From positions 1 through 40,420 of the forward strand of contig JBDRKV010000048.1 of the NCBI GenBank assembly GCA_043813745.1: DNA of 40,420 nt. Direction: 5' to 3'. Below the pieces are notes generated by a model that did not search any database, was not told the DNA's origin, and worked only from the letters and a program-made list of their open reading frames with translations. Positions 2,329 to 39,904 of the stretch are shown one piece after another. The DNA is from Candidatus Aenigmatarchaeota archaeon (GTDB lineage: Archaea > Aenigmatarchaeota > Aenigmatarchaeia > GW2011-AR5 > GCA-2688965). Made by a program: the position numbers and the translations under genes. Each line of letters opens with the position of its first letter. The first letter of the stretch is position 1.

Positions 2329-2562
2329 TTATTCCATGACTTCTTTTATTTTCTGTGCAACGAAATCGACAACTGCTTGATCCAAAGGCAGGCTAAAGGA
2401 TTTCTTGTAACGCCTGTCACCCTCAGTCGTGAAGAAACCACGGCTGATAGAGATGAAAACGTTCTCGCCTTCTTCTGTCAAAGCTTTCTTTTTGGCTACT
2501 TCAACGAATTTGTTCTCGCCAAACTTGAGCTCTTCGGATTTGATTGTCTCAAATTCTACCAT
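2329..2562 (-). CDS. small conserved protein, possibly PC4/YdbC-like ssDNA-binding fold
   Basis: 77 aa. The pattern LKFGENKFVEV...FISISRGFFTTEGDRRYKKSFSLP resembles PC4-like domains. AGGAG lies upstream of the ATG. Confidence 0.35.
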   Translation of the reverse strand: MVEFETIKSEELKFGENKFVEVAKKKALTEEGENVFISISRGFFTTEGDRRYKKSFSLPLDQAVVDFVAQKIKEVME

Positions 2563-2798
2563 TTTTATCTTTCAACTCCTTTTGTTTTGTATTGTCTAAT
2601 TGGAAGCAAAGCTTAAAAACGTTTTAATTTGTAGAGTAAAGTTTGAATTTTATGAGCATCCAAATGGCATAGTAAATGTTATGGCAAAGGAAGAGTTCGA
2701 TATTCATCAGCTAAGGAAAGAGTTGGTGAGGATTAGAGTTGACTTATCATACACGCTGGGATGCATAGCAAATGGTGAGAAAAGACCAAAACCCCTCA

Positions 2799-4986: not shown

Positions 4987-7623
4987 ATGAAACAATATGT
5001 TTATTTTTTCGGCGAGATGAAGGACTCAAAGACCCACAAAGACGTCCTAGGTGGGAAAGGAGCCAATTTAGGCGAGATGACAAACATAGGAATTCCTGTT
5101 CCGCCCGGCTTTACGATAACAACCGAGGCATGCAAATACTTCTATGATAATAACAAAAAATACCCGTCAGAGCTGCAAAAGCAAATAGATGATAACTTGA
5201 AGAAATTAGAGCAGAAAATGGGCAAGAAATTAGGCGTGGATTTATTAGTTTCCGTCCGTTCCGGAGCAGCAGCATCCATGCCAGGTATGATGGACACTAT
5301 TTTGAATCTAGGACTGAACGACAAGAACGTCATGGATTTTGCAAAGAAGAGCGGCAATGAACGCTTTGTATGGGATGCTTATCGCCGTCTTTTGCAGATG
5401 TTCGGAGACGTCGTGATGGGCGTGGAGCACAAGCACTTCGAAGAAATATTGTCAAAAAAGAAAGAGACAAAAGGCGTTGAATACGATACTGATTTAGATG
5501 CAAAAGACCTCAAAAACGTCGTCGATGAGTACAAGAAGCTGATTAAAAAAGAAGCCAAGAAAGACTTTCCGCAGGATGCTAAAGAACAACTAAAAATGTC
5601 CATTGACGCGGTCTTTGGCTCATGGATGAACAAGCGCGCTATCACGTATCGCCGGATTTACAATATCACCGGCTTGATCGGCACAGCAGTAAACATCCAG
5701 ACAATGGTGTTCGGCAACATGGGCCAGTCATGCGGCACAGGCGTTGCATTCACGCGCAATCCCTCAACAGGCGACAACATATTCTACGGCGAGTATTTGA
5801 TGAACGCCCAGGGCGAAGATGTCGTAGCCGGAATAAGAACTCCAAAACCAATAACCGAGCTGAAAAAAGAAATGCCCAAGATTTACAGCGAATTAGTTGC
5901 TATACGTGATAAACTGGAAAAGCATTATCGCGAAATGCAGGACGTTGAATTCACGATTGAAAATGGAAAATTATTCATGCTGCAGACGCGCAACGGCAAG
6001 CGTACAGGTCCTGCTGCTGTTAAGATAGCAGTGGACATGGTAAAAGAAAAATTAATTACAGAAAAAGAAGCGATCATGCGCGTCGAACCGTCGCAGTTAG
6101 ATCAGTTACTGCACAAGCGCATTGATGAAATCGCAAAAAAGAAATCAAAAATTTTGACAAAGGGGCTTGCAGCCTCGCCGGGCGCAGCAGTAGGCAACGT
6201 TGTGTTCACTGCAGAAGACGCTGTCATACAGACAAAGAAAGGTGATAAAGTCATTCTTGTTCGCCCGGAAACGTCGCCAGAAGACATAGAAGGCATGAAT
6301 GTTGCGCAAGGAATACTAACAGCAACAGGCGGGCTCACATCCCATGCAGCAGTCGTGGCGCGCGGCATGGGTAAGTGTTGTGTATCAGGAGCAGGAGACA
6401 TTATTATTGATGTAAAGGCAAAAAAATTCCGTGTAGGCGACATTGTCGTGAAAGAAGGAGACGAGATAACGCTGGACGGCTCAGCAGGCGAGGTATTCGT
6501 GGGAACGCTGCCTACAGTAGAGCCTAATATTTCCGGAGATTTCGCAACACTTATGAAATGGTCTGACTCGTTCAGGAAAATAGGCGTACGCACAAATGCA
6601 GACACGCCGCGCGACACAAAAGTCGCAGTTGGTTTCGGCGCAGAAGGCATCGGCCTATGCCGAACAGAGCACATGTTCTTTGAAGGGGATCGTATTAGAG
6701 CAGTGCGTGAAATGATTCTCTCGCGTGACGTCGCCGGCCGAGAAAAAGCATTGGCAAAATTATTACCTATGCAAAGAAATGATTTTTATGAAATGTACAA
6801 AGCGTTAGATGGCCGTCCGATGACCATACGTCTCATTGACCCGCCATTGCACGAATTCCTGCCAAAAGAGGACAAAGACGTGAAAGAGCTTTCCAAGATT
6901 ATGAATATTAACGAAAAAGTTTTGCGCGAAGTTAGTTCGTCGCTGCATGAGTTCAATCCAATGCTCGGGCACCGCGGCTGCAGGCTGTGCATAACATATC
7001 CTGAAATCGCTGTGATGCAGACGCGCGCGATAATCGAGGCAGCTGCAAAGATAAAAAAAGAGGGCAAGGACGTCCATCCAGAAATCATGATACCGCTAGT
7101 TGGTCATGTCAAGGAGTTCGTACATGTCAAGGATATTGTCGAGGAGACCGTCAAGAAAGTCATGGACGAACAGAAGATTAAGTTAGATTACAGCATCGGC
7201 ACCATGATAGAAGTGCCCCGCGCAGCGATAACAGCAGACGAGGTCGCAAAAGAAGCAGAGTTCTTTTCATTCGGAACCAACGATTTGACGCAGATGACAT
7301 TCGGGTTCTCACGCGACGATGTAGGCAAGTTCATGCCGGATTATATTGAAAAAGGCGTCCTGGAAAAAGACCCGTTCCAGACATTAGACACAAATGGCGT
7401 GGGCCAGTTGATAAAGATTGCAATTGAAAAAGGCCGCAAAACCCGCCCGAATCTCAAGGTCGGAATCTGCGGAGAGCACGGCGGAGACCCGGACAGCGTC
7501 AAATTCTGCGCCAACAACGGTTTTGATTACGTTTCCTGTTCTCCATACCGCGTGCCTATCGCGCGACTCGCAGCCGCGCAGGCTGAATTAGAAAAGACAA
7601 CCAACAAAACTAGCACTGTATAG
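4987..7623 (+). CDS. ppdK: pyruvate, phosphate dikinase
   Basis: GGKGANLGEM ATP-grasp N-terminus, central phosphohistidine region GGLTSHAAVVARGMG, and a PEP-utilising C-terminal TIM barrel. The ORF track opens at GTG 4978; the first ATG is 4987. Confidence 0.95.
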   Translation: MKQYVYFFGEMKDSKTHKDVLGGKGANLGEMTNIGIPVPPGFTITTEACKYFYDNNKKYPSELQKQIDDNLKKLEQKMGKKLGVDLLVSVRSGAAASMPGMMDTILNLGLNDKNVMDFAKKSGNERFVWDAYRRLLQMFGDVVMGVEHKHFEEILSKKKETKGVEYDTDLDAKDLKNVVDEYKKLIKKEAKKDFPQDAKEQLKMSIDAVFGSWMNKRAITYRRIYNITGLIGTAVNIQTMVFGNMGQSCGTGVAFTRNPSTGDNIFYGEYLMNAQGEDVVAGIRTPKPITELKKEMPKIYSELVAIRDKLEKHYREMQDVEFTIENGKLFMLQTRNGKRTGPAAVKIAVDMVKEKLITEKEAIMRVEPSQLDQLLHKRIDEIAKKKSKILTKGLAASPGAAVGNVVFTAEDAVIQTKKGDKVILVRPETSPEDIEGMNVAQGILTATGGLTSHAAVVARGMGKCCVSGAGDIIIDVKAKKFRVGDIVVKEGDEITLDGSAGEVFVGTLPTVEPNISGDFATLMKWSDSFRKIGVRTNADTPRDTKVAVGFGAEGIGLCRTEHMFFEGDRIRAVREMILSRDVAGREKALAKLLPMQRNDFYEMYKALDGRPMTIRLIDPPLHEFLPKEDKDVKELSKIMNINEKVLREVSSSLHEFNPMLGHRGCRLCITYPEIAVMQTRAIIEAAAKIKKEGKDVHPEIMIPLVGHVKEFVHVKDIVEETVKKVMDEQKIKLDYSIGTMIEVPRAAITADEVAKEAEFFSFGTNDLTQMTFGFSRDDVGKFMPDYIEKGVLEKDPFQTLDTNGVGQLIKIAIEKGRKTRPNLKVGICGEHGGDPDSVKFCANNGFDYVSCSPYRVPIARLAAAQAELEKTTNKTSTV

Positions 7624-7624
7624 A

Positions 7625-8923
7625 TTAAAACCAAGCGCGCAGCGTCCGCTGCTGTCTGTACGCTCCAAGCACATTGCTTGCCTTCAGCAAGCTATCAATT
7701 GATTTTTTAGTTTGCATGCGCACATGTTTCAGCGCCTCGTCTAGCGTTGCAAACGTTTCTTTATATGGAAAAATAGTAATACCGTCAGCCCCATGTTCTT
7801 TAGATTCCAAGGAGCGTTTCTTACAAGAAAAGCTGCTTCTAACGTTCTCCCTGCATTCCCACACGCCTACAGGAACAGAGTATTCAGGCATGACCTCGCG
7901 CAACACAAGCACGCTTGCCTGCCGACGAATCCTGCTTAGATATTCAGCCACAGCAAACCTTACAGCATAGTACCCGCCCTCGCAGTTGCTTGCATAGTTT
8001 TTGCGGCCGAAGAAGTTTTCATAGTCCGTAGACACAGCCGGCGCAGCCGTAGGATTCCATAATGAGTTTCCGTACCACAGTTCTATCAGTTCAAACGTCC
8101 ACGTACCAGGCATAAACAGTATGTAGAACTTGTTTCCAAGATATTCATTGACATATAGCTCAAATGTATTTATCGTATCAAACCTGCGTATCTCTTTGAG
8201 CATGCTCTTAGCAAGCATGTCATCCGTCGCTGTAATCGACCAGCGCGTTGGAACCAGTTTTTTCTGCGACTTAAGCCCGAGCAAGCCTACGGAAAGTATG
8301 CGCATTAATTGGTTGACGTCAATACCATATCCATAGAGTTCGTTCATTGCTTCTACAGCTTTCAGCTCGTCGCTGACAATTTTGTCTACTTTCGTCAGCA
8401 CGTGCGGATTTTCCTCCAGCTTCACTGCTTTTAATATAGCAGGCGCTCCAATCGGCGGCGTTGTTAAATCCAGTTGCATCGCAACATAAGGCTTTTTCTT
8501 CAGAAAGAATTCCGTAGATGGCGGCTTCGCCGCCATCGCGATCTCCTGCGCTACTTCCAGCGTCTTTGTTTCCGAGCGCACGCTGGTGCGCTCGCGTGAA
8601 TGAATGAGCTGCGTGCGCGCATCCATAATGTCTTCCAAGCCATAGCTCTTTTCATACCAGAAAGTCGGCGCATCAAGCTTCCAGGCATCGCTGCTTACGC
8701 TGGCAGGAGAGAGCAGCCCGATATTAATTTCCGGATAGCCCGCGCGCCCGACAAACGGCGAAACTCCGGAAGCGTTAAAGTTTTCCTTCAGCCTGGCTAT
8801 TTCCACTTTATGCACGTTCAATCGTTCAAGTATTGGACACGGCTTGCCGCAGAGATTTTTGCCCTTACACCTTATGCATAATGTAGATATTTTCCCGAGG
8901 CTTTTCTCAAAAGGCTCTAGCAT
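7625..8923 (-). CDS. nreA: Nre-family DNA repair protein (archaeal)
   Basis: N-terminal Cys cluster CIRCKGKNLCGKPCP, and the length and overall pattern of Nre_N/Nre_C proteins as I recall them. Confidence 0.6.
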   Translation of the reverse strand: MLEPFEKSLGKISTLCIRCKGKNLCGKPCPILERLNVHKVEIARLKENFNASGVSPFVGRAGYPEINIGLLSPASVSSDAWKLDAPTFWYEKSYGLEDIMDARTQLIHSRERTSVRSETKTLEVAQEIAMAAKPPSTEFFLKKKPYVAMQLDLTTPPIGAPAILKAVKLEENPHVLTKVDKIVSDELKAVEAMNELYGYGIDVNQLMRILSVGLLGLKSQKKLVPTRWSITATDDMLAKSMLKEIRRFDTINTFELYVNEYLGNKFYILFMPGTWTFELIELWYGNSLWNPTAAPAVSTDYENFFGRKNYASNCEGGYYAVRFAVAEYLSRIRRQASVLVLREVMPEYSVPVGVWECRENVRSSFSCKKRSLESKEHGADGITIFPYKETFATLDEALKHVRMQTKKSIDSLLKASNVLGAYRQQRTLRAWF

Positions 8924-9841: not shown

Positions 9842-10156
9842 TTACTTTTTCTTATGAGCTGGCTCTTCAATCGCTACAGTCACTTGTGCCGGAGCTGCCT
9901 TGGCTTTCTTTTCCCTGCGCTCCCATTTTAGGTCTTCGTATTCAATCCATGCAACGATTAGGCCGAAGAATATCAGCACCAGACCGAACACGCCGGTAAA
10001 TACAACTGCAAAGGCTTGGAACGTTGTGTGCACAGCTTCAAACCCCAAAAGGAAGTTTGCTATGTTGTGCTGTCCGAAAAGCAGCCCTTCAGCGTACCAT
10101 ACTATACCGGCTATGAAGATTATCAGCCCGATTATTAGTTTTATTGCTGGATGCAT
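9842..10156 (-). CDS. small integral membrane protein (3 predicted TM helices)
   Basis: Three hydrophobic segments followed by a K/E/A-rich tail. Confidence 0.5.
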   Translation of the reverse strand: MHPAIKLIIGLIIFIAGIVWYAEGLLFGQHNIANFLLGFEAVHTTFQAFAVVFTGVFGLVLIFFGLIVAWIEYEDLKWERREKKAKAAPAQVTVAIEEPAHKKK

Positions 10157-18321: not shown

Positions 18322-18379
18322 GGTATTCACCATATTGTTTCTTTTGAACCCAAGGGCCTTTTCTTTACAAAGAAAAGGG
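18322..18379 (-). repeat. family B-like element, copy B3 (5' of rpl18e), diverged
   Basis: AAGCCCCTTTTCTTTGTAAAGAAAAGGCCCTTGGGTTCAAAAGAAACAATATGGTGAATACC. It has the same hairpin layout, with stem changes compensated. Confidence 0.6.
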
Positions 18380-18400
18380 GCTTATGCCGGGGGTGAGATT
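18380..18400 (-). repeat. exact 21-bp duplicate of the tRNA-Leu 3' end plus trailer
   Basis: gcttatgccgggggtgagatt occurs at 18380-18400 and at 18491-18511. Confidence 0.9.
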
Positions 18401-18490
18401 ACTGGAAAAGACCGTGAGTCTTTTCAGTTCCCGACGAGCTTTGCTCAGTCGCGGATGAACTCCGTTCAAATCTTTATATTAATCCTGTGA
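18401..18490 (-). repeat. 90-nt three-hairpin insert (element X) between the two tRNA-3'-end copies
   Basis: Minus sense: TTAATAT..., then hairpins CGGA-GTTCA-TCCG, CGACTGAGC-AAA-GCTCGTCG and ACTGAAAAGAC-TCACG-GTCTTTTCCAGT. Confidence 0.7.
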
Positions 18491-18495
18491 GCTTA

Positions 18496-18664
18496 TGCCG
18501 GGGGTGAGATTTGAACTCACGAAGACACTAAGTCACAGGATTTCTTAAATCCAGGTTAATATTTTATATCAACCCACTTTTCTTTGGATTCCAAGGAGCC
18601 TTTCTTTTTAAAGAAAGGCTGCTTCTTAAGTCCTGCCCCGTTGACCAGACTTGGGTACCCCGGC
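18496..18664 (-). tRNA. tRNA-Leu(UAA) with an 83-nt intron (exons 18664-18625 and 18541-18496)
   Basis: Hand-folded. Acceptor GCCGGGG/CCCCGGC, anticodon stem CAGGA/TCCTG, loop CTTAAGA, variable arm GACTTAGTGTC, T arm GTGAG-TTCAAAT-CTCAC, discriminator A. No CCA is encoded. Confidence 0.85.
18542..18624 (-). repeat. family B element, copy B1 (the tRNA-Leu intron)
   Basis: Near-identical to 39692-39763 over about 70 nt: GAAGCAGCCTTTCTTT..AAAGAAAGGCTCCTTGGAATCCAAAGAAA...GGTTGATA.AAAATATTAA. Confidence 0.85.
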
Positions 18665-18724: not shown

Positions 18725-18754
18725 GTTTTCCGCAAGCCATGTTTTAAAGGGCTT
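18725..18754. repeat. family E partial copy (3' half)
   Basis: GTTTTCCGCAAGCCATGTTTTAAAGGGCTT. Confidence 0.55.
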
Positions 18755-18760
18755 GGTTGG

Positions 18761-18827
18761 GGTTTCCAAGGGATACATGGATACGAAGTATCCGTGGTTT
18801 TTCCGCAAGCGCTTTCCTAAAGGGCTT
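18761..18827. repeat. family E element, copy E1 (between rpoD stop and tRNA-Leu promoter)
   Basis: GGTTTCCAAGGGAT-[CATGGATAC GAA GTATCCGTG]-GTTTTTCCGCAAGCGCTTTCCTAAAGGGCTT. Confidence 0.8.
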
Positions 18828-19611
18828 ATTTAACACTTTTCTTCAGTTCTTTCTCGAACTCTTTGGCATCCGCCTTCATACCATCCAGCGCTGCCATCAG
18901 GACGTATTCAATGGGCTTGCCGGATATGCTCTCGGCTGTAAACAAAAATTTGCTGTCGTCTCCGCTGACTTTCGTCGCGCCGGATGCAACGCATTTCATA
19001 CACATGTTGCAGCGGTCGTTGTTCGTGACAACTATCTTCCCGTCTCTTTTTGAAAAGACATTTTTAGGGCACATGCTCATCGCTTCCTCGGGTTCGCCCT
19101 CGTCTGTGAGCGACACTTTTGGGTTGTATTTGTACCCGACCACAGCTGCCTGGTGCTTTGCATGCGAGCTGCCACAGCCGAGTTCTGCAGTTGCTTCGAA
19201 CTTTATCTGCTGCCCTTCAAGCAGTTCTATTATCGGCACGCCTGCAGCAGCCGGCTTGACGCTGCCGTCAGTTGATTTCATGTCCTCTCCATGCACAATG
19301 CACGGCCCGGTTTTATCTAGCACGAGCGTAACCTGGCAATGACTGCAACCATCCTTACATTTGCACTTGTCACGTTGTTTGAAAACCTTTTCATCAAACG
19401 TCAATGGTATCAAACCTAATCTGTGCGCTATGATCTCGTCGAATAAGCCTGAATTGTTTTTTTCGAAATAAACCTCTTTAATCGCCATCGTGGACACGCC
19501 TGTCATCATGTAACGCCTCAATGCATTTGCAAAAGCAGGATTACTCTCCTCCAGTACAAATGTCATCTTCTCTTTGGACTTTTTTTGCACATGTATTTTC
19601 ATAAAAATCAT
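18826..19611 (-). CDS. rpoD: DNA-directed RNA polymerase subunit D (Rpo3) with ferredoxin-like Cys cluster
   Basis: AFANALRRYM, GLIPL, Cys clusters CKCKDGCSHC and CNMCMKCV. It sits in the canonical S13-S4-S11-RpoD order. Confidence 0.9.
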   Translation of the reverse strand: MIFMKIHVQKKSKEKMTFVLEESNPAFANALRRYMMTGVSTMAIKEVYFEKNNSGLFDEIIAHRLGLIPLTFDEKVFKQRDKCKCKDGCSHCQVTLVLDKTGPCIVHGEDMKSTDGSVKPAAAGVPIIELLEGQQIKFEATAELGCGSSHAKHQAAVVGYKYNPKVSLTDEGEPEEAMSMCPKNVFSKRDGKIVVTNNDRCNMCMKCVASGATKVSGDDSKFLFTAESISGKPIEYVLMAALDGMKADAKEFEKELKKSVK

Positions 19612-19614
19612 CTC

Positions 19615-19645
19615 GTTTTCCGCGAGCGCTTTCCTAAAAGTTTCA
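19615..19645. repeat. family E partial copy E3 (fills the rps11-rpoD spacer)
   Basis: GTTTTCCGCGAGCGCTTTCCTAAAAGTTTCA. Confidence 0.55.
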
Positions 19646-20038: not shown

Positions 20039-20588
20039 CCTGCTTCACCTCTTCTACGACCTTTTCTACAACAGGTTTGTCGCTTTCAGCATCTTCAACT
20101 TTTTCAACAGCCTTCTCTTTTTTAGCTGGCATTAAAACTTTAATCTTATCTTCAATGTCCCTGGTAACTATTAAACTGGGCTTGTTCGCACGTCTACTGC
20201 CAATTAGCACATGCTTATGTAATATAGCTTGTCTGGCATGCTTTATAGAGCCCGCAAGGCCCTTTTCAAATACGTATGACTGTAACCGCCTTCTGAGCAG
20301 GCTTTTCAGTTTAAGGTCCAGCACGTCATCCAGCTGCGCCTCTTTTTCAACCAGCCCAATCCTGTACAGCTTGTCAATAAGCTCCTTCTTTTTTTGCTCA
20401 TTTGTAGATGCCTGCAAGTCTCTTGCACGACCGCGTATGTTCCTAAGCATGGTCTCTGCACGCCAGAGCTCCTTCTTGCGCCTAAGCCCGAACTCGTCCA
20501 TTAGCTTGCGCTCCTCTTCCAGGCGCTCCTTGCTAAACGGGCTCTTTGGTCTGCTGTACGCCCTTCGTTGCATCTTAGGATGTCCCAT
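20028..20588 (-). CDS. rps4: ribosomal protein S4 (uS4) with acidic/Lys-rich C-terminal extension
   Basis: [18 protein letters not shown]...ELWRAE...S4 domain. An alternative ATG lies at 20597. Confidence 0.9.
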
Positions 20589-20667
20589 GTTTTTCATCTC
20601 ACTTAAATATGAAAAATCTCAACGAAATGTCAATTTCAGTTGCATGTTTTTCATCTCACTTAAATAT
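20586..20667 (-). repeat. family A copy A2 (20611-20642) flanked by an exact 25-bp direct repeat (20586-20610 and 20643-20667) containing the rps4 start
   Basis: catgtttttcatctcacttaaatat occurs twice. The core in mRNA sense is CAACTGAAAT-TGAC-ATTTCGTTG AGATTTTTC. Confidence 0.85.
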
Positions 20668-20672
20668 TAAAA

Positions 20673-24874: not shown

Positions 24875-25072
24875 ATGGATGAACTGACCAGATTTGAAAA
24901 AACGCGGATAATCAGTGCCAGGGCTTTGCAAATATCAATGGGTGCGCCTATTCTTGTCAAGACAGACTTGCAGGATCCAAAGGATATCACGCTGCTCGAA
25001 TTTGAAAAAGGCGTTTTGCCTATAACAGCCAGCATGCGCGAGCCGAAAAGGCTCGGAAAGCCCGTAGCATGA
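24875..25072 (+). CDS. rpoK: DNA-directed RNA polymerase subunit K (Rpo6)
   Basis: [22 protein letters not shown]...EFEKGVLPI. Confidence 0.9.
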
Positions 25073-25918: not shown

Positions 25919-26707
25919 ATGAGAGCACTTGGTTTCTATCCTGTCGACCCGGAAAAGCTGGAAAAGCAAGTAACGTCTTTTCTAGAACAAGACGTCAAGC
26001 CCGTGCAGGATGCACTGGGCGCAATCGTTCCGCACGCAGGCTACCCTTTCTCAGGCATGCTTGCTGCGAAAACGTTGAAGGCTGCGAAAACCAAGAATCA
26101 TCGTTTCATAATCATGGGTCCGAACCACATGGGACACGACACGCTGATAGATAATGGAGAATGGCGCACGCCATTGGACAAGTTGAAGTTGGACAACGAC
26201 TTCATAAAGAAATTGAATATCAAACAAGATTCGACGTTAGAACATAGCATTGAAGTCCAGCTGCCCATATTGCAGAAACTATACAACGACTTTAGTTTTG
26301 TTCCATTAGTTGTAGGTCCGAACACCTTCGACGAACTAAAGCAGCTTGCAAAGCAGCTGATGACAAGCGACCATTTCTATATAGCAAGCAGCGATTTCAT
26401 CCATTTCGGCCCGAACTACAACTACGTGCCTTCTGAAGCCGGTCCAGGCCAGCAGGACCAGCTGAAATGGGTCAAGAACATTGACCGAAAGCTTGCAGAA
26501 TTAATATGCAATCTGAAAGCAAAAGAATTTTTTGAAGAAATCGAGAAAAAAGAGTATACAGTGTGCGGCTACCGCGCAATAACGCTCTTCATGCTGCTCA
26601 TGGAAAAGCTCGGAGCCAAGCAGGGCCAGACAATCGACTACGCAACAAGTTACGACGTTTACCCAAATCACTCCTTTGTTTCGTACGTGGGTTTCGTGTT
26701 TAGTTAG
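25919..26707 (+). CDS. MEMO1-family protein (AmmeMemoRadiSam system protein B)
   Basis: GAIVPHAGYPFSG, IIMGPNH and SSDFIHFG. Confidence 0.8.
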   Translation: MRALGFYPVDPEKLEKQVTSFLEQDVKPVQDALGAIVPHAGYPFSGMLAAKTLKAAKTKNHRFIIMGPNHMGHDTLIDNGEWRTPLDKLKLDNDFIKKLNIKQDSTLEHSIEVQLPILQKLYNDFSFVPLVVGPNTFDELKQLAKQLMTSDHFYIASSDFIHFGPNYNYVPSEAGPGQQDQLKWVKNIDRKLAELICNLKAKEFFEEIEKKEYTVCGYRAITLFMLLMEKLGAKQGQTIDYATSYDVYPNHSFVSYVGFVFS

Positions 26708-26770
26708 GGTTTCCAAGGGATTGTGCGCTGCGAAGCACGCACGTTTTCCGCAAGCGCTTTCTTAAAGGGC
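26708..26770. repeat. family E element, copy E2 (after the MEMO-family gene)
   Basis: GGTTTCCAAGGGAT-[GTGCGCTGC GAA GCACGCAC]-GTTTTCCGCAAGCGCTTTCTTAAAGGGC. Confidence 0.8.
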
Positions 26771-26819
26771 TTACCCAAATCACTCCTTTGTTTCGTACGT
26801 GGGTTTCGTTTTCAGTTAA
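26771..26819 (+). pseudogene. duplicate of the last 15 codons plus stop of the MEMO-family gene
   Basis: 49 bp, 46/49 identical to 26659-26707. All three differences are at third codon positions (GTG/GTT, TTT/TTC, TAG/TAA). Confidence 0.85.
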
Positions 26820-27405: not shown

Positions 27406-27507
27406 TTAATATGGTCTATCTGAGAAGGTATCATTTAGATACCTTCTAGATTTTGAAGACATCCGAGATGTCTTCACAAAGACTGATGCAAAAGCATCAG
27501 GGTAGGG
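27406..27507 (+). promoter_or_regulatory. family D leader, copy D4 (5' of tRNA-Ser), three hairpins
   Basis: TTAATATGGTCTATCTG, AGAAGGTATC-ATTTA-GATACCTTCT, AGATTTT, GAAGACATC-CGA-GATGTCTTC, ACAAAGA, CTGATGC-AAAA-GCATCAG, GGTAGGG. Confidence 0.7.
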
Positions 27508-27547
27508 TTTGTCGTTTTTAAATGATGCTTGATAAAAAATCTAACAT

Positions 27548-27633
27548 GCCGCGATGGCAGAGAGGCCTAATGCGCTAGCCTGGAAAGCTAGTAACACTTC
27601 GGTGTTGCAAGAGTTCGAATCTCTTTCGCGGCG
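27548..27633 (+). tRNA. tRNA-Ser(GGA)
   Basis: Hand-folded. Acceptor GCCGCGA/TCGCGGC, anticodon stem CTAGC/GCTAG, loop CTGGAAA, long variable arm ACACTTCGGTGT, T arm AAGAG-TTCGAAT-CTCTT, discriminator G. Confidence 0.9.
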
Positions 27634-27693
27634 CTTGATGTTCAATATATATTTAAAAACTCCTATGAAGAACTAAAGACTACATTAAAATCA

Positions 27694-27794
27694 TAATATG
27701 ATCTATCTGAAAAGGCTTTCAAAGAAAGCCTTTTAGATTTGGAAGACATCTTTGATGTCTTCACAAAGACTGTTCTAAGAAGAACAGGGTAGTG
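27694..27794 (+). promoter_or_regulatory. family D leader, copy D5 (5' of rpl10e), three hairpins
   Basis: TAATATGATCTATCTG, AAAAGGCTTTC-AAA-GAAAGCCTTTT, AGATTTG, GAAGACATC-TTT-GATGTCTTC, ACAAAGA, CTGTTCT-AAGA-AGAACAG, GGTAGTG. Confidence 0.7.
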
Positions 27795-27801
27795 ATTCAA
27801 A

Positions 27802-38811: not shown

Positions 38812-38822
38812 TTTTTAATTTT

Positions 38823-38880
38823 ATGATGTTGCACTGATATCCGCAGGCTAAAGCCCGCGGTTTCCTTGTGCAACAGCATC
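38823..38880 (+). terminator. family F stem-loop after the DEAD-box helicase gene, with a nested hairpin
   Basis: ATGATGTTGCAC...CCGCAGGC-TAAA-GCCCGCGG...GTGCAACAGCATC. Confidence 0.45.
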
Positions 38881-38881
38881 T

Positions 38882-38930
38882 CAAAGAGCTCATCTGTGGA
38901 CTTTAGTCCACAGTTTTCGCATGCTCTTTG
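38882..38930. terminator. second nested stem-loop in the convergent spacer
   Basis: CAAAGAGC ... CTGTGGAC-TTTA-GTCCACAG ... GCTCTTTG. Confidence 0.4.
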
Positions 38931-38946
38931 CAGATAAAAATTATTC

Positions 38947-39678
38947 CTAAAAATTCTCCTGTATGAACCGTTCCAGATAGATTAGTTCATTCGGATTTCC
39001 GAACGGTACCCAATAACTCTTCGCCGGCACGATGCGAACTTTGTGCGCATCTGCGAGCAGCTGCACAGCAGACGTGATTTCGTATTCTCCGCGCTCTGAG
39101 CGTTTTATTTTTTTCAGCGCCTCAAAGATGTCAGGCGTGAACTTCCACAAGTTCGCGTTAACAAGCTTGTCTTGATAGAACTCCTTGATCTCACCAGCAG
39201 ACGGCTTTTCAACAATCCTGCGCAGCCATCCCTGCTGGTCTGTCGAAAGTACAGCGTATTTTGTGGGGTCCATTGCACGATAGCCCATGCCATAGCAAAC
39301 GTCGTCGTTAATAACTTTCTTGAACCGAGCCATGTCATCCGGCGAATACAAGTCATCGCCGTTGACCATTACAAAGTTTTGCCCGGCAACGAAGTCTTCC
39401 GCAGCTTTCACAGCATCGCCTGTGCCTCTTGGCTCTGGCTGGTTGATGAAAGATATTTTCATGTCAAAATAGTGCTTGTTCTTCTTTACCCAGTCCTCCA
39501 TCATTTCTTTCTTGTAATTTACAACAATGCCCACGTCAGTCGCGCCGGCAGTCTTAAGGTTGTGTAGTAACCAATATAGGAACGGCTTGCCGGCTACAGG
39601 TATGAGCGGCTTTGGTATCGTAGCCGTAAGAGGCATCATGCGCGTGCCCTTTCCAGCAGCTAAGAGAACGACTTTCAT
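38947..39678 (-). CDS. sugar-phosphate nucleotidyltransferase (RfbA/GlmU N-domain-like)
   Basis: MKVVLLAAGKGTRMMPLTATIPKPLIPVAGKP. Confidence 0.8.
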   Translation of the reverse strand: MKVVLLAAGKGTRMMPLTATIPKPLIPVAGKPFLYWLLHNLKTAGATDVGIVVNYKKEMMEDWVKKNKHYFDMKISFINQPEPRGTGDAVKAAEDFVAGQNFVMVNGDDLYSPDDMARFKKVINDDVCYGMGYRAMDPTKYAVLSTDQQGWLRRIVEKPSAGEIKEFYQDKLVNANLWKFTPDIFEALKKIKRSERGEYEITSAVQLLADAHKVRIVPAKSYWVPFGNPNELIYLERFIQENF

Positions 39679-39763
39679 TGAAAAAAACCTTCCTTAATAT
39701 TTTGTATCAACCATATGTTTCTTTGGATTCCAAGGAGCCTTTCTTTACAAAGAAAGGCTGCTT
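39679..39763 (-). repeat. family B element, copy B2 (immediately 5' of the nucleotidyltransferase ATG)
   Basis: Same core as B1. Its 3' end supplies AATATTAAGGAAGGTTTTTTTCA just before the ATG. Confidence 0.85.
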
Positions 39764-39788
39764 CTGCAGCTAAGAGGACTATTTTCAT
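39764..39788 (-). pseudogene. relic duplicate of the first 25 nt of the nucleotidyltransferase gene
   Basis: ATGAAAATAGTCCTCTTAGCTGCAG versus the gene's ATGAAAGTCGTTCTCTTAGCTGCTG, which is 21/25 identical. Confidence 0.75.
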
Positions 39789-39835
39789 ATTTTCATCTCC
39801 GATGAAAATCTCAACGAATGCAATGCATTCAGTTG
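39789..39835 (-). repeat. family A copy A4 (upstream of the relic nucleotidyltransferase start)
   Basis: mRNA sense: CAACTGAATGC-ATT-GCATTCGTTG AGATTTTCAT CGGAG ATGAAAAT. Confidence 0.7.
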
Positions 39836-39904
39836 CAGATCATCACTCTGCAATTATTCGATGAAAAATTTAAATAGATTTAATTAAGCTCTTAATTAAA
39901 TATA

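Follow-up and report, generated by a model that had tools for sequence, protein, structure and literature searches.

How does a gene stay in use when its first codons have been split by an unrelated sequence? We addressed this question near one end of a 40,420-nt stretch of a Candidatus Aenigmatarchaeota contig (JBDRKV010000048.1; "the window" means this whole stretch). There, a sugar-phosphate nucleotidyltransferase (NT) gene is preceded by a second copy of its own start, the relic, and the two are separated by an 85-nt sequence, B2, belonging to a dispersed, hairpin-forming family (family B). With moderate confidence for the explanation as a whole, our analyses favour a reading in which a small non-coding element, rich in hairpins, inserted into the NT gene at the DNA level after codon 8. 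We infer that this event left the first eight codons on both flanks; the upstream copy would have retained the original promoter, leader and Shine-Dalgarno (SD) sequence, and the downstream copy would head the intact open reading frame (ORF). The main addition made here is the identity of the element, which by its sequence is a tRNA-intron family that also invades protein genes.

Two copies of one gene start

The features of the locus, together with the other family B copies of the window, are collected in Table 1. The NT ORF matched PF00483 (NTP_transferase) with 133.9 bits (cut-off 21.2; E = 9e-39), residues 2-240 lying on profile positions 1-243. As the ORF is full-length over the profile, splicing is not needed for an intact product. 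A total of 2941 homologues were found at E <= 1e-20, the best of which displayed 46-48% identity at 99-100% coverage.

Table 1 Coordinates of the NT locus and of further family B copies in the window
Feature	Positions	Strand	Remarks
TATA-type promoter box CTATTTAAATTT	39866..39877	-	TTTAAA hexamer begins 86 nt 5′ of the relic ATG at 39788
Small palindrome of "family A", CAACTGAA..TTCGTTGAGA, in full CAACTGAATGCATTGCATTCGTTGAGA	39809..39835	-	In the 5′ leader; also in the S4 gene leader (20616-20642), between 30-nt duplicates
Leader hairpin GATTTTCATC-GGA-GATGAAAAT	39789..39810	-	In both the centroid and the minimum free energy (MFE) fold
SD-like GGAGATGA (GGAGATMA-type)	39800-39793	-	Enclosed by the leader hairpin GATTTTCATC/GATGAAAAT
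Relic gene start ATGAAAATAGTCCTCTTAGCTGCAG (MKIVLLAA)	39764..39788	-	21/25 identical to 39654-39678
Relic ORF, 37 codons	39675..39788	-	From the relic ATG through B2; its TGA overlaps the real ATG as ATGA (ORF list)
B2 element, 85 nt	39679..39763	-	70-nt core homologous to a tRNA intron at 39694-39763; covariance model (CM) R1, 88.6 bits
Seven-T run (T7), sense strand	39681..39687	-	3 nt 5′ of the real ATG; candidate archaeal oligo-T terminator
Working gene start ATGAAAGTCGTTCTCTTAGCTGCTG (MKVVLLAA)	39654..39678	-	Opens a 243-codon ORF
NT gene, intact, 243 aa	38947..39678	-	PF00483 match
tRNA-Leu(UAA), unannotated, with an 83-nt canonical 37/38 intron (18542-18624)	18496..18664	-	ARAGORN with introns allowed; its 5′-most 70 nt of intron are the nearest relative of B2
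B1 copy between the tRNA-Leu region and the start of rpl18e (ATG 18333)	18323..18385	-	CM 74.7 bits
B-like 60-nt in-frame insertion (20 aa) in nreA, after invariant R362	7778..7837	-	CM 67.6 bits at 7782-7840

The relic start ATGAAAATAGTCCTCTTAGCTGCAG and the working start ATGAAAGTCGTTCTCTTAGCTGCTG lie 110 nt apart and both encode MK(I/V)VLLAA. The original prediction had described this arrangement as an 85-nt family B element between two 25-mers, and its coordinates were confirmed; the dispersed nature of the family was borne out by the CM and by counts of the family core. The probability of reaching at least 21 matches in 25 positions by chance is ~1e-9 per offset, or ~2e-5 across 300 offsets and 49 genes. 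Direct repeats of this quality (>=21/25) at spacings of 25-300 nt occur at only six loci in the whole window. The NT gene is also the sole gene start with an upstream self-copy of at least 18/24 positions, both in the window and in four related loci.

The resemblance could in principle reflect nothing but the conserved motif of the family, the relic being the 5′ stump of a different NT gene, paralogous or foreign, that was left by a rearrangement. MK.V.LAAG is the most frequent N-terminus of the NT family, and codons drawn for MKIVLLAA from the codon usage of the window already yield a mean identity of 18/25. However, 21/25 was reached in only 4% of these trials (P = 0.04), and the V-L-L-A-A variant common to the relic and the NT gene was otherwise present in only 2 of 120 homologues. 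No second NT gene or paralogue was found in the 40-kb window, and the closest NT relatives start with MKYVILAAG, nearest homologues generally displaying MK.V.LAAG. We therefore consider this alternative very improbable. The identity of 21/25, the rarity of VLLAA and the lack of a second NT gene suggest that the relic is best read as a derivative of the start of this NT gene, or of a very close allele.

Two simpler accounts were rejected. An ordinary tandem duplication, named in the original prediction as a competing interpretation, is ruled out because the leader 5′ of the relic and the element 5′ of the real start are unrelated. An assembly artefact is unlikely because the repeats differ at four positions and the element differs from its nearest copy by ~12%.

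The B family in tRNA introns and protein genes

What, then, is the sequence that separates the two starts? The family core CCTTGGAATCCAAAGAA occurred four times within three mismatches, against 0.2 occurrences expected. A CM built from the window copies scored the four copies of the window at 68-89 bits and two further copies at 64-71 bits, the latter on a 13-kb contig (L012) of the Nanoarchaeota metagenome-assembled genome (MAG) UBA10117. Relative to their host transcripts, the six copies are all in sense, and across them hairpin 1 is paired in 97.6% of cells, with three compensatory pairs. Among 116 loci retrieved by a 17-mer core scan of 596 Gb of genomes, nearly all were chance matches and only L012 was real; a 21-mer scan of JGI metagenomes found only the organism of L012; and no Rfam family matched the element (gathering threshold, E <= 10).

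The closest relative of the B2 core, at 18555-18624 (~88% identity over 70 nt), lies inside the intron of the tRNA-Leu(UAA) gene, which was missed by Rfam at the gathering threshold and by ARAGORN with default settings. This intron is bounded by a strict bulge-helix-bulge (BHB) motif with the central helix CTTA/TAAG, the bulges AG|A and AA|A, an inner helix of 2 bp, and an outer helix of 6 bp that is the anticodon stem. The region folds with z = -5.0 relative to shuffled sequences. In its tRNA gene context, its 37/38 position and its BHB, the copy at 18542-18624 has the attributes of an archaeal BHB intron, and the Rfam tRNA model matches the ortholog at the related locus L118. The B module also opens the canonical introns of tRNA-Ile(GAU) (103 nt) and tRNA-Ala(CGC) (97 nt) in UBA10117, which were called by ARAGORN once second introns in the T loop had been removed by hand. 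Judging by sequence and covariance, the B element is thus the 5′ module of canonical tRNA introns.

Second introns were observed in several of these genes. In L012, tRNA-Ile-GAU (5650-5840) and tRNA-Ala-CGC (6330-6500), both on the reverse strand, each carry one in the T loop, and default tRNA finders miss these tRNAs for this reason. The tRNA-Leu genes of two other related loci, L121 and L122, also contain a second intron, located at the 5′ edge of the anticodon loop.

Comparison with relatives revealed sites at which family B sequence is lacking. The closest relatives keep the gene order around nreA and the ribosomal-protein cluster, and in their syntenic tRNA-Leu(UAA) genes the canonical intron measures just 29 nt in L118 and ~22 nt in L121/L122, and shares the end of the window intron (..TAAGAA|ATCCTG or ..GGTAGAA|ATCCTG). 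These short introns suggest that the 70 nt of B lie within a pre-existing short intron of the window tRNA-Leu. The 20-aa insert of nreA is missing from 10 of 10 aligned homologues, including the closest three (57-61% identity). Meanwhile, the nearest NT homologues, which share the motif GKGTRMMP, have one start, no relic and no element, albeit in another gene neighbourhood. The relatives that provide these empty sites are distant, with protein identities of 46-61%. Together, the short tRNA-Leu introns and the single-start NT genes of relatives indicate that B2 is an insertion, and we regard both the insertion and the identity of the element as highly probable. The claim that the element landed in the first codons of the gene, which was rescued by a duplicated start, accordingly remains the best reading of the locus, given the complete Pfam ORF, the single-start homologues and the shared VLLAA.

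The remaining copies displayed features of their own. The nreA insert is associated with an imperfect repeat, T(G/A)TAA(A)GAAACG, at a spacing of 60 nt, and the native nreA sequence 3′ of the insert resembles the hairpin arm of the element at 14 of 18 positions. In B1, the 3′ end ATATGGTGAATACC-ATG is the native SD leader of rpl18e, with a counterpart, TATATGGTGATTCA-ATG, directly 3′ of tRNA-Leu in L121. A hairpin similar to B1 was found at the equivalent place in L118. Hence, the rpl18e copy is partly native, and this locus may have been the source of part of the B family.

Although the duplicated start stands, its interpretation as the target-site scar of the element is only one of several options. 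The duplication could have arisen by long staggered-cut fill-in, by att- or Campbell-type recombination with a copy of the gene start, or by replication template switching. The likeness of the two 25-mers starts exactly at the ATG, the 15 nt 5′ of each ATG being unrelated, and three of the four differences fall on third codon positions, the remaining one being the Ile/Val exchange. A neutrally decaying target-site duplication predicts neither this onset nor this bias. They would fit one of the two copies having come with incoming DNA, through an att-like or Campbell-type crossover or from a diverged allele, since the differences resemble those of two coding copies diverging under selection (P ~0.1 for a neutral scar, a statistic based on four differences only). 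The repeats have diverged by 16%, against 0-4% in the other local duplications, and a published model links intron gain and gene-fragment repeats to the integration of mobile elements at tRNA genes (PMC3293823); archaeal elements that integrate there likewise reconstitute the tRNA gene and leave a direct repeat behind. On the other hand, no integrase or larger element lies nearby, only 85 nt separate the repeats, and two scans of IMG/VR viral contigs yielded no real B copy. Elsewhere in the window, too, short inserts accompanied by long, near-identical duplications look as if local sequence had been freshly duplicated. We therefore consider the arrival of a gene-start copy with incoming DNA, which would be compatible with any route of expression, as possible although rather unlikely.

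Expression of the interrupted gene

The insertion raises the question of which start is transcribed and how the working ORF is translated. In 10 of the 39 window genes, a TTTAWA hexamer begins 26-29 nt 5′ of the ATG (-29 ± 3), which suggests that these genes are leaderless; leader-bearing genes of the window display a GGTGA SD sequence 5-9 nt 5′ of the ATG. The set of signals is complete and strong at the relic start and weak at the real start. The box CTATTTAAATTT upstream of the relic scored 11.1 bits with a position weight matrix derived from 11 local promoter boxes, and 12-mers of the same class precede the genes at 9842 and 10259. For the real start, the original prediction had proposed a promoter, AATATTAA, and a ribosome-binding site, GGAAGGT, both supplied by the 3′ end of the element. 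Neither assignment was supported. Only 15 nt separate the end of AATATTAA from the ATG, where real promoters leave ~21-22 nt, and the best 12-mer in the leaderless register, TGATACAAAATA, scored 1.0 bit, the 90th percentile of random windows being 1.9. GGAAGGT shares only AGGT with the local GGTGA consensus.

The leader of the relic contains further motifs. An octamer, ATGAAAAT, stands in tandem at the relic start (GAG-ATGAAAAT-ATGAAAAT-AG; 39781-39796, reverse strand), and the first of the two ATGs opens an ORF of three codons only. At 39828-39850 (reverse strand), GCAGAGTGATGATCTGC is followed by AACTGAA, which corresponds to a C-box-like GUGAUGA and, at a distance of 6 nt, a D-box-like CUGA. 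GAGAUGA..CUGA stands at a similar spacing in the S4 leader. These C/D-box-like motifs of the NT leader could be a candidate K-turn/L7Ae site.

The original prediction also stated that the old start would now read into the element and stop. A stop is indeed present; more exactly, the relic frame crosses the whole of B2, and its TGA then overlaps the real ATG. Of the three frames of B2, only the one used by the relic ATG is open. Three stops interrupt this frame in the tRNA-intron copy, and each of them is removed in B2 by one of three differences between the two copies (GT for AA in the loop, a 1-nt indel, and C for T). The last of these, C for T, also drops a TATA-like box from 5.2 to 1.0 bits. 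The co-directional ORFs 39675..39788 and 38947..39678 overlap as ATGA, a 4-nt stop/start overlap that is an established signal of termination-reinitiation in archaea (PMC6728339, PMC10666635). As in such pairs, the TGA shares two bases with the downstream ATG, and the two ORFs are co-directional and presumably on one transcript. Unlike in the usual coupled pairs, the upstream ORF here is a relic start fused to an element, and coupling is suggested by geometry alone.

Based on these features, we tentatively propose that the element probably stays in the mRNA and is not spliced out. Transcription would start at the old promoter, and ribosomes would begin at the relic AUG and translate 37 codons across the single open frame of the element. 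They would then reach the UGA overlapping the real AUG (AUGA), where translation of the NT ORF would follow by re-initiation, aided by a weak AGGU 8 nt upstream, or by direct initiation. Read-through with re-initiation or internal initiation is the weakest part of our explanation, and we hold it with less than even confidence.

Several observations weigh against the insertion account or this route. Shuffled versions of B2 were open in 9% of cases, and in ~3% with the required phase, and the open frame was judged post hoc. The T7 run lies 3 nt before the real ATG, and at other places in the window T7 runs come after stop codons. Intrinsic termination in archaea is signalled by oligo-T, and sense-strand runs of at least six T within window genes are about sevenfold rarer than antisense ones (~12 versus ~80). 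Read-through from the old promoter may therefore be inefficient, which favours an element-borne promoter or low expression. The B insertions in the tRNA intron and in nreA lack a comparable long flanking duplication, so that a duplication of 25 nt does not invariably accompany the element. Finally, an orthologous empty site of the NT gene was not found among 5.8 billion proteins, the best matches being 46-48% identical and in another neighbourhood.

The T7 run speaks for a second route, in which the element supplies its own promoter, located in its AT-rich 3′ part, or a ribosome-binding site, transcripts from upstream end at T7, the NT mRNA is leaderless or nearly so, and the relic is dead weight. 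This run stands directly before the ATG, sense T runs are otherwise avoided in the window genes, and most window genes are leaderless with a TATA hexamer at -29. In the tRNA-intron copy, GATATAAAAT scores 5.2 bits in the exact register, so that the element, when newly inserted, could have offered a box fit for use. In addition, a CA dinucleotide occupies -2/-1. However, in B2 itself this box has become ATACAAAA, whose 1.0 bit falls below the 90th percentile of random windows (1.9), and initiation from AATATTAA would fall inside the ORF. Moreover, the strong promoter, leader and SD sequence of the relic are fully kept. An element-borne promoter thus appears rather unlikely, and we rank it second, behind read-through from the old promoter. 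Opposite predictions follow from the T7 run and from the open relic ORF with its ATGA.

In addition, T7 reads as the heptamer U UUU UUU, in a register at which a -1 shift would lead out of the relic frame and into that of the gene. A -1 frameshift on this run was considered, and no stimulatory structure was found.

Splicing comes a distant third in our ranking. In this scenario, the element, with or without the second 25-mer, would be an mRNA intron, and the tRNA splicing endonuclease and ligase would join the relic to codon 9. In three tRNAs, family B sequence is a genuine BHB intron, all copies of the family are in sense, and non-canonical tRNA introns in relatives imply an endonuclease of broad specificity. 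Nevertheless, a strict BHB scan that recovers the tRNA-Leu intron returned only weak or out-of-frame candidates at B2, and the best-scoring pairs were either out of frame or devoid of an outer helix. The sole in-frame candidate has an AGCU/AGCU central helix inside both repeats, with sites GCUGC|AG and GCUGC|UG and an intron of 110 nt, and its product would be MKIVLLAAGKGT. Its outer helix consists of two G-U pairs only and its inner helix has 2 bp, and any 4-nt palindrome within a direct repeat automatically yields such a candidate. At the tRNA-type 5′ boundary (after ..CAG), no downstream partner of GCAG type was found for CUGC. In B2, the 3′ part from which the BHB of the tRNA is built has not been conserved; GGAAGGTTTTTTTCA, a tail unique to this copy, stands in its place, and the NT region folds no better than shuffled sequences (z = -0.92). 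A helix drawn by hand between GCAGC of the element and GCUGC of either repeat was rejected, as it has three of four central-helix pairs and would delete a codon of GxGTR. Accordingly, the suggestion that a BHB-type splice joins the relic to the ORF found no convincing motif, mRNA splicing of B2 is without positive support, and we judge it highly unlikely.

A broader version of this idea holds that family B is a mobile BHB-type intron that has moved beyond tRNA genes, the NT and nreA copies being cut from their mRNAs by a broad-specificity endonuclease through relaxed motifs. We give this possibility a very low probability. If true, the NT and nreA copies would be recent introns of protein genes, and the duplicated 25-mer would act as exon-like sequence, either splice outcome giving the same protein.

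Other duplications and known systems

Several other local duplications were observed, and those at the S4 leader, around a family C element and at the S4 start of L118 add further gene ends of this clade with an insert and a duplication, in line with the insertion account. In the S4 leader (20586-20672, reverse strand), a stretch of 30 nt including the SD sequence and the ATG occurs twice (29/30), with the 27-nt family A palindrome between the copies, the first of which lies directly 3′ of the stop of the upstream gene. In L118 (256-400, forward strand), an S4 relic start, ATGGGACAT..ACATCCAAAAAT, is split by a hairpin element, GGTCAAATAAAATTTGACC, and the real start, ATGGGACATCCAAAAATG, follows ~125 nt further on with a new SD sequence. 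This S4 relic is an independent duplicated gene start, and the same hairpin also occurs in the RNA beside tRNA-Leu. At 26659-26818 (forward strand), a 64-nt element of another family, C (GGGTTTCCAAGGG..TTTTCCGCAAGCGCTTTCTTAAAGGGC), stands between 48-nt repeats (46/48). Two convergent genes, with stops that overlapped originally, each retain a stop codon through this duplication; further family C copies lie at 18726-18828 and 19616-19645. The tRNA-Ser(GGA) gene at 27548-27634 stands between copies of a ~100-nt promoter and leader hairpin (27407-27510 and 27694-27797, forward strand; 80-91% identical), the second of which heads the L10e gene.

Next to tRNA-Leu, the last 21 nt of the tRNA with its trailer, AATCTCACCCCCGGCATAAGC, are repeated exactly 111 nt downstream (18380-18511, reverse strand). 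L118 displays the same arrangement with its own tRNA 3′ end, AATCCGGCCTCCCGCA (2470-2632, forward strand), and for this reason we dropped the 21-nt repeat as a second long target duplication. Between the copies, the motifs ACAGGATT, GACTGAGCA and AAAGCTCGTC are common to the window and L118, as is an 11-bp hairpin with eight compensatory pairs. Rfam returned no match for this conserved RNA (gathering threshold, E <= 10), and the repeat region looks like a conserved unclassified RNA or a tRNA-derived element. In three of the six local duplications the repeats start 110, 111 and 112 nt apart (39654/39764, 18380/18491 and 26659/26771), with repeat lengths of 25, 21 and 48 nt and inserts of different lengths. 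This common period is probably a coincidence, since a relative conserves one of these duplications at another spacing. Finally, the spacer 3′ of the NT gene (38812-38946, reverse strand) contains the nested palindromes CAAAGAGC..GCTCTTTG, CTGTGGACTAAAGTCCACAG and CCGCGGGCTTTAGCCTGCGG, along with a 19-mer, ATGATGTTGCACTGATATC, that recurs at 25069 and 14521.

Family B shares properties with several known systems. BHB introns have been found to transpose between tRNA genes, with groups common to unrelated tRNAs in Thermoproteales (PMC4090602), and intron gain through the integration of mobile elements has been proposed (PMC3293823). Similarly, one family here occupies the canonical introns of tRNA-Leu, tRNA-Ile and tRNA-Ala in two genomes, and the much shorter introns at the same site in relatives suggest a late gain or growth of introns by mobile sequence. 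Unlike the known transposing introns, which are confined to tRNA genes, B is also found with protein genes: one copy is at a gene start, one lies in frame inside an ORF and one belongs to an operon leader, and in none of them is a BHB evident. The cbf5 gene of Crenarchaeota contains an mRNA intron with a recognisable BHB that is spliced. The NT locus is reminiscent of cbf5 in harbouring tRNA-intron-like sequence within a protein gene; it differs in that B2 has no convincing BHB and the NT gene is complete unspliced.

Rickettsia palindromic elements enter ORFs in frame. Like these and like MITEs (miniature inverted-repeat transposable elements; reviewed for prokaryotes in PMC10969869), B is short (60-110 nt), non-coding and hairpin-forming, has several diverged copies per genome, and is tolerated in genes when the frame is kept (60 nt in nreA, an open frame in NT). 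Short non-coding copies are dispersed as in MITEs, with four in 40 kb and two on the 13-kb UBA10117 contig. Unlike MITEs, B has no clear terminal inverted repeats, doubles as a tRNA intron and resides in a DPANN host. Only the internal palindrome of hairpin 1 was seen, together with a weak match of the 5′ part to the B2-specific tail (CCTTTCTT/AAGGAAGG), and the copies differ in their 3′ boundary. A short target duplication of fixed length was not found at every copy: it measures 25 nt at NT and ~12 nt, imperfect and at 60-nt spacing, at nreA, and the tRNA-Leu copy has no flanking repeat separable from the BHB constraints. To our knowledge, no partner transposase of the B family has been described.

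The IS1634 group makes long direct repeats of variable length. In integrative elements of the SSV/pNOB8 type, the att site duplicates part of the target gene (PMC3293823). B2 resembles these systems in that a direct repeat, tens of nucleotides long, lies on both sides of the insert and makes the interrupted gene whole again. Unlike them, the insert has only 85 nt and no recombinase, the window repeats measure 25, 30 and 48 nt, and the NT repeats have diverged by 16%.

Collectively, these findings place one family in three settings, as the bulk of the introns of three tRNAs, as an in-frame insertion in a DNA-repair gene, and at the split start of a metabolic gene. They bear on the old question of where archaeal tRNA introns come from, and suggest a link to mobile DNA that is able to enter protein genes. 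The short introns and uninterrupted genes of relatives provide direct sequence evidence that some tRNA introns grow or arise by the insertion of an element. Such an element would land in many places and survive only where the host neutralises it, by splicing in tRNAs, and by preservation of the frame or a duplicated start in protein genes. The NT locus offers a concrete example of how, in a streamlined archaeal genome, a gene can be kept in use once its 5′ end has been hit.

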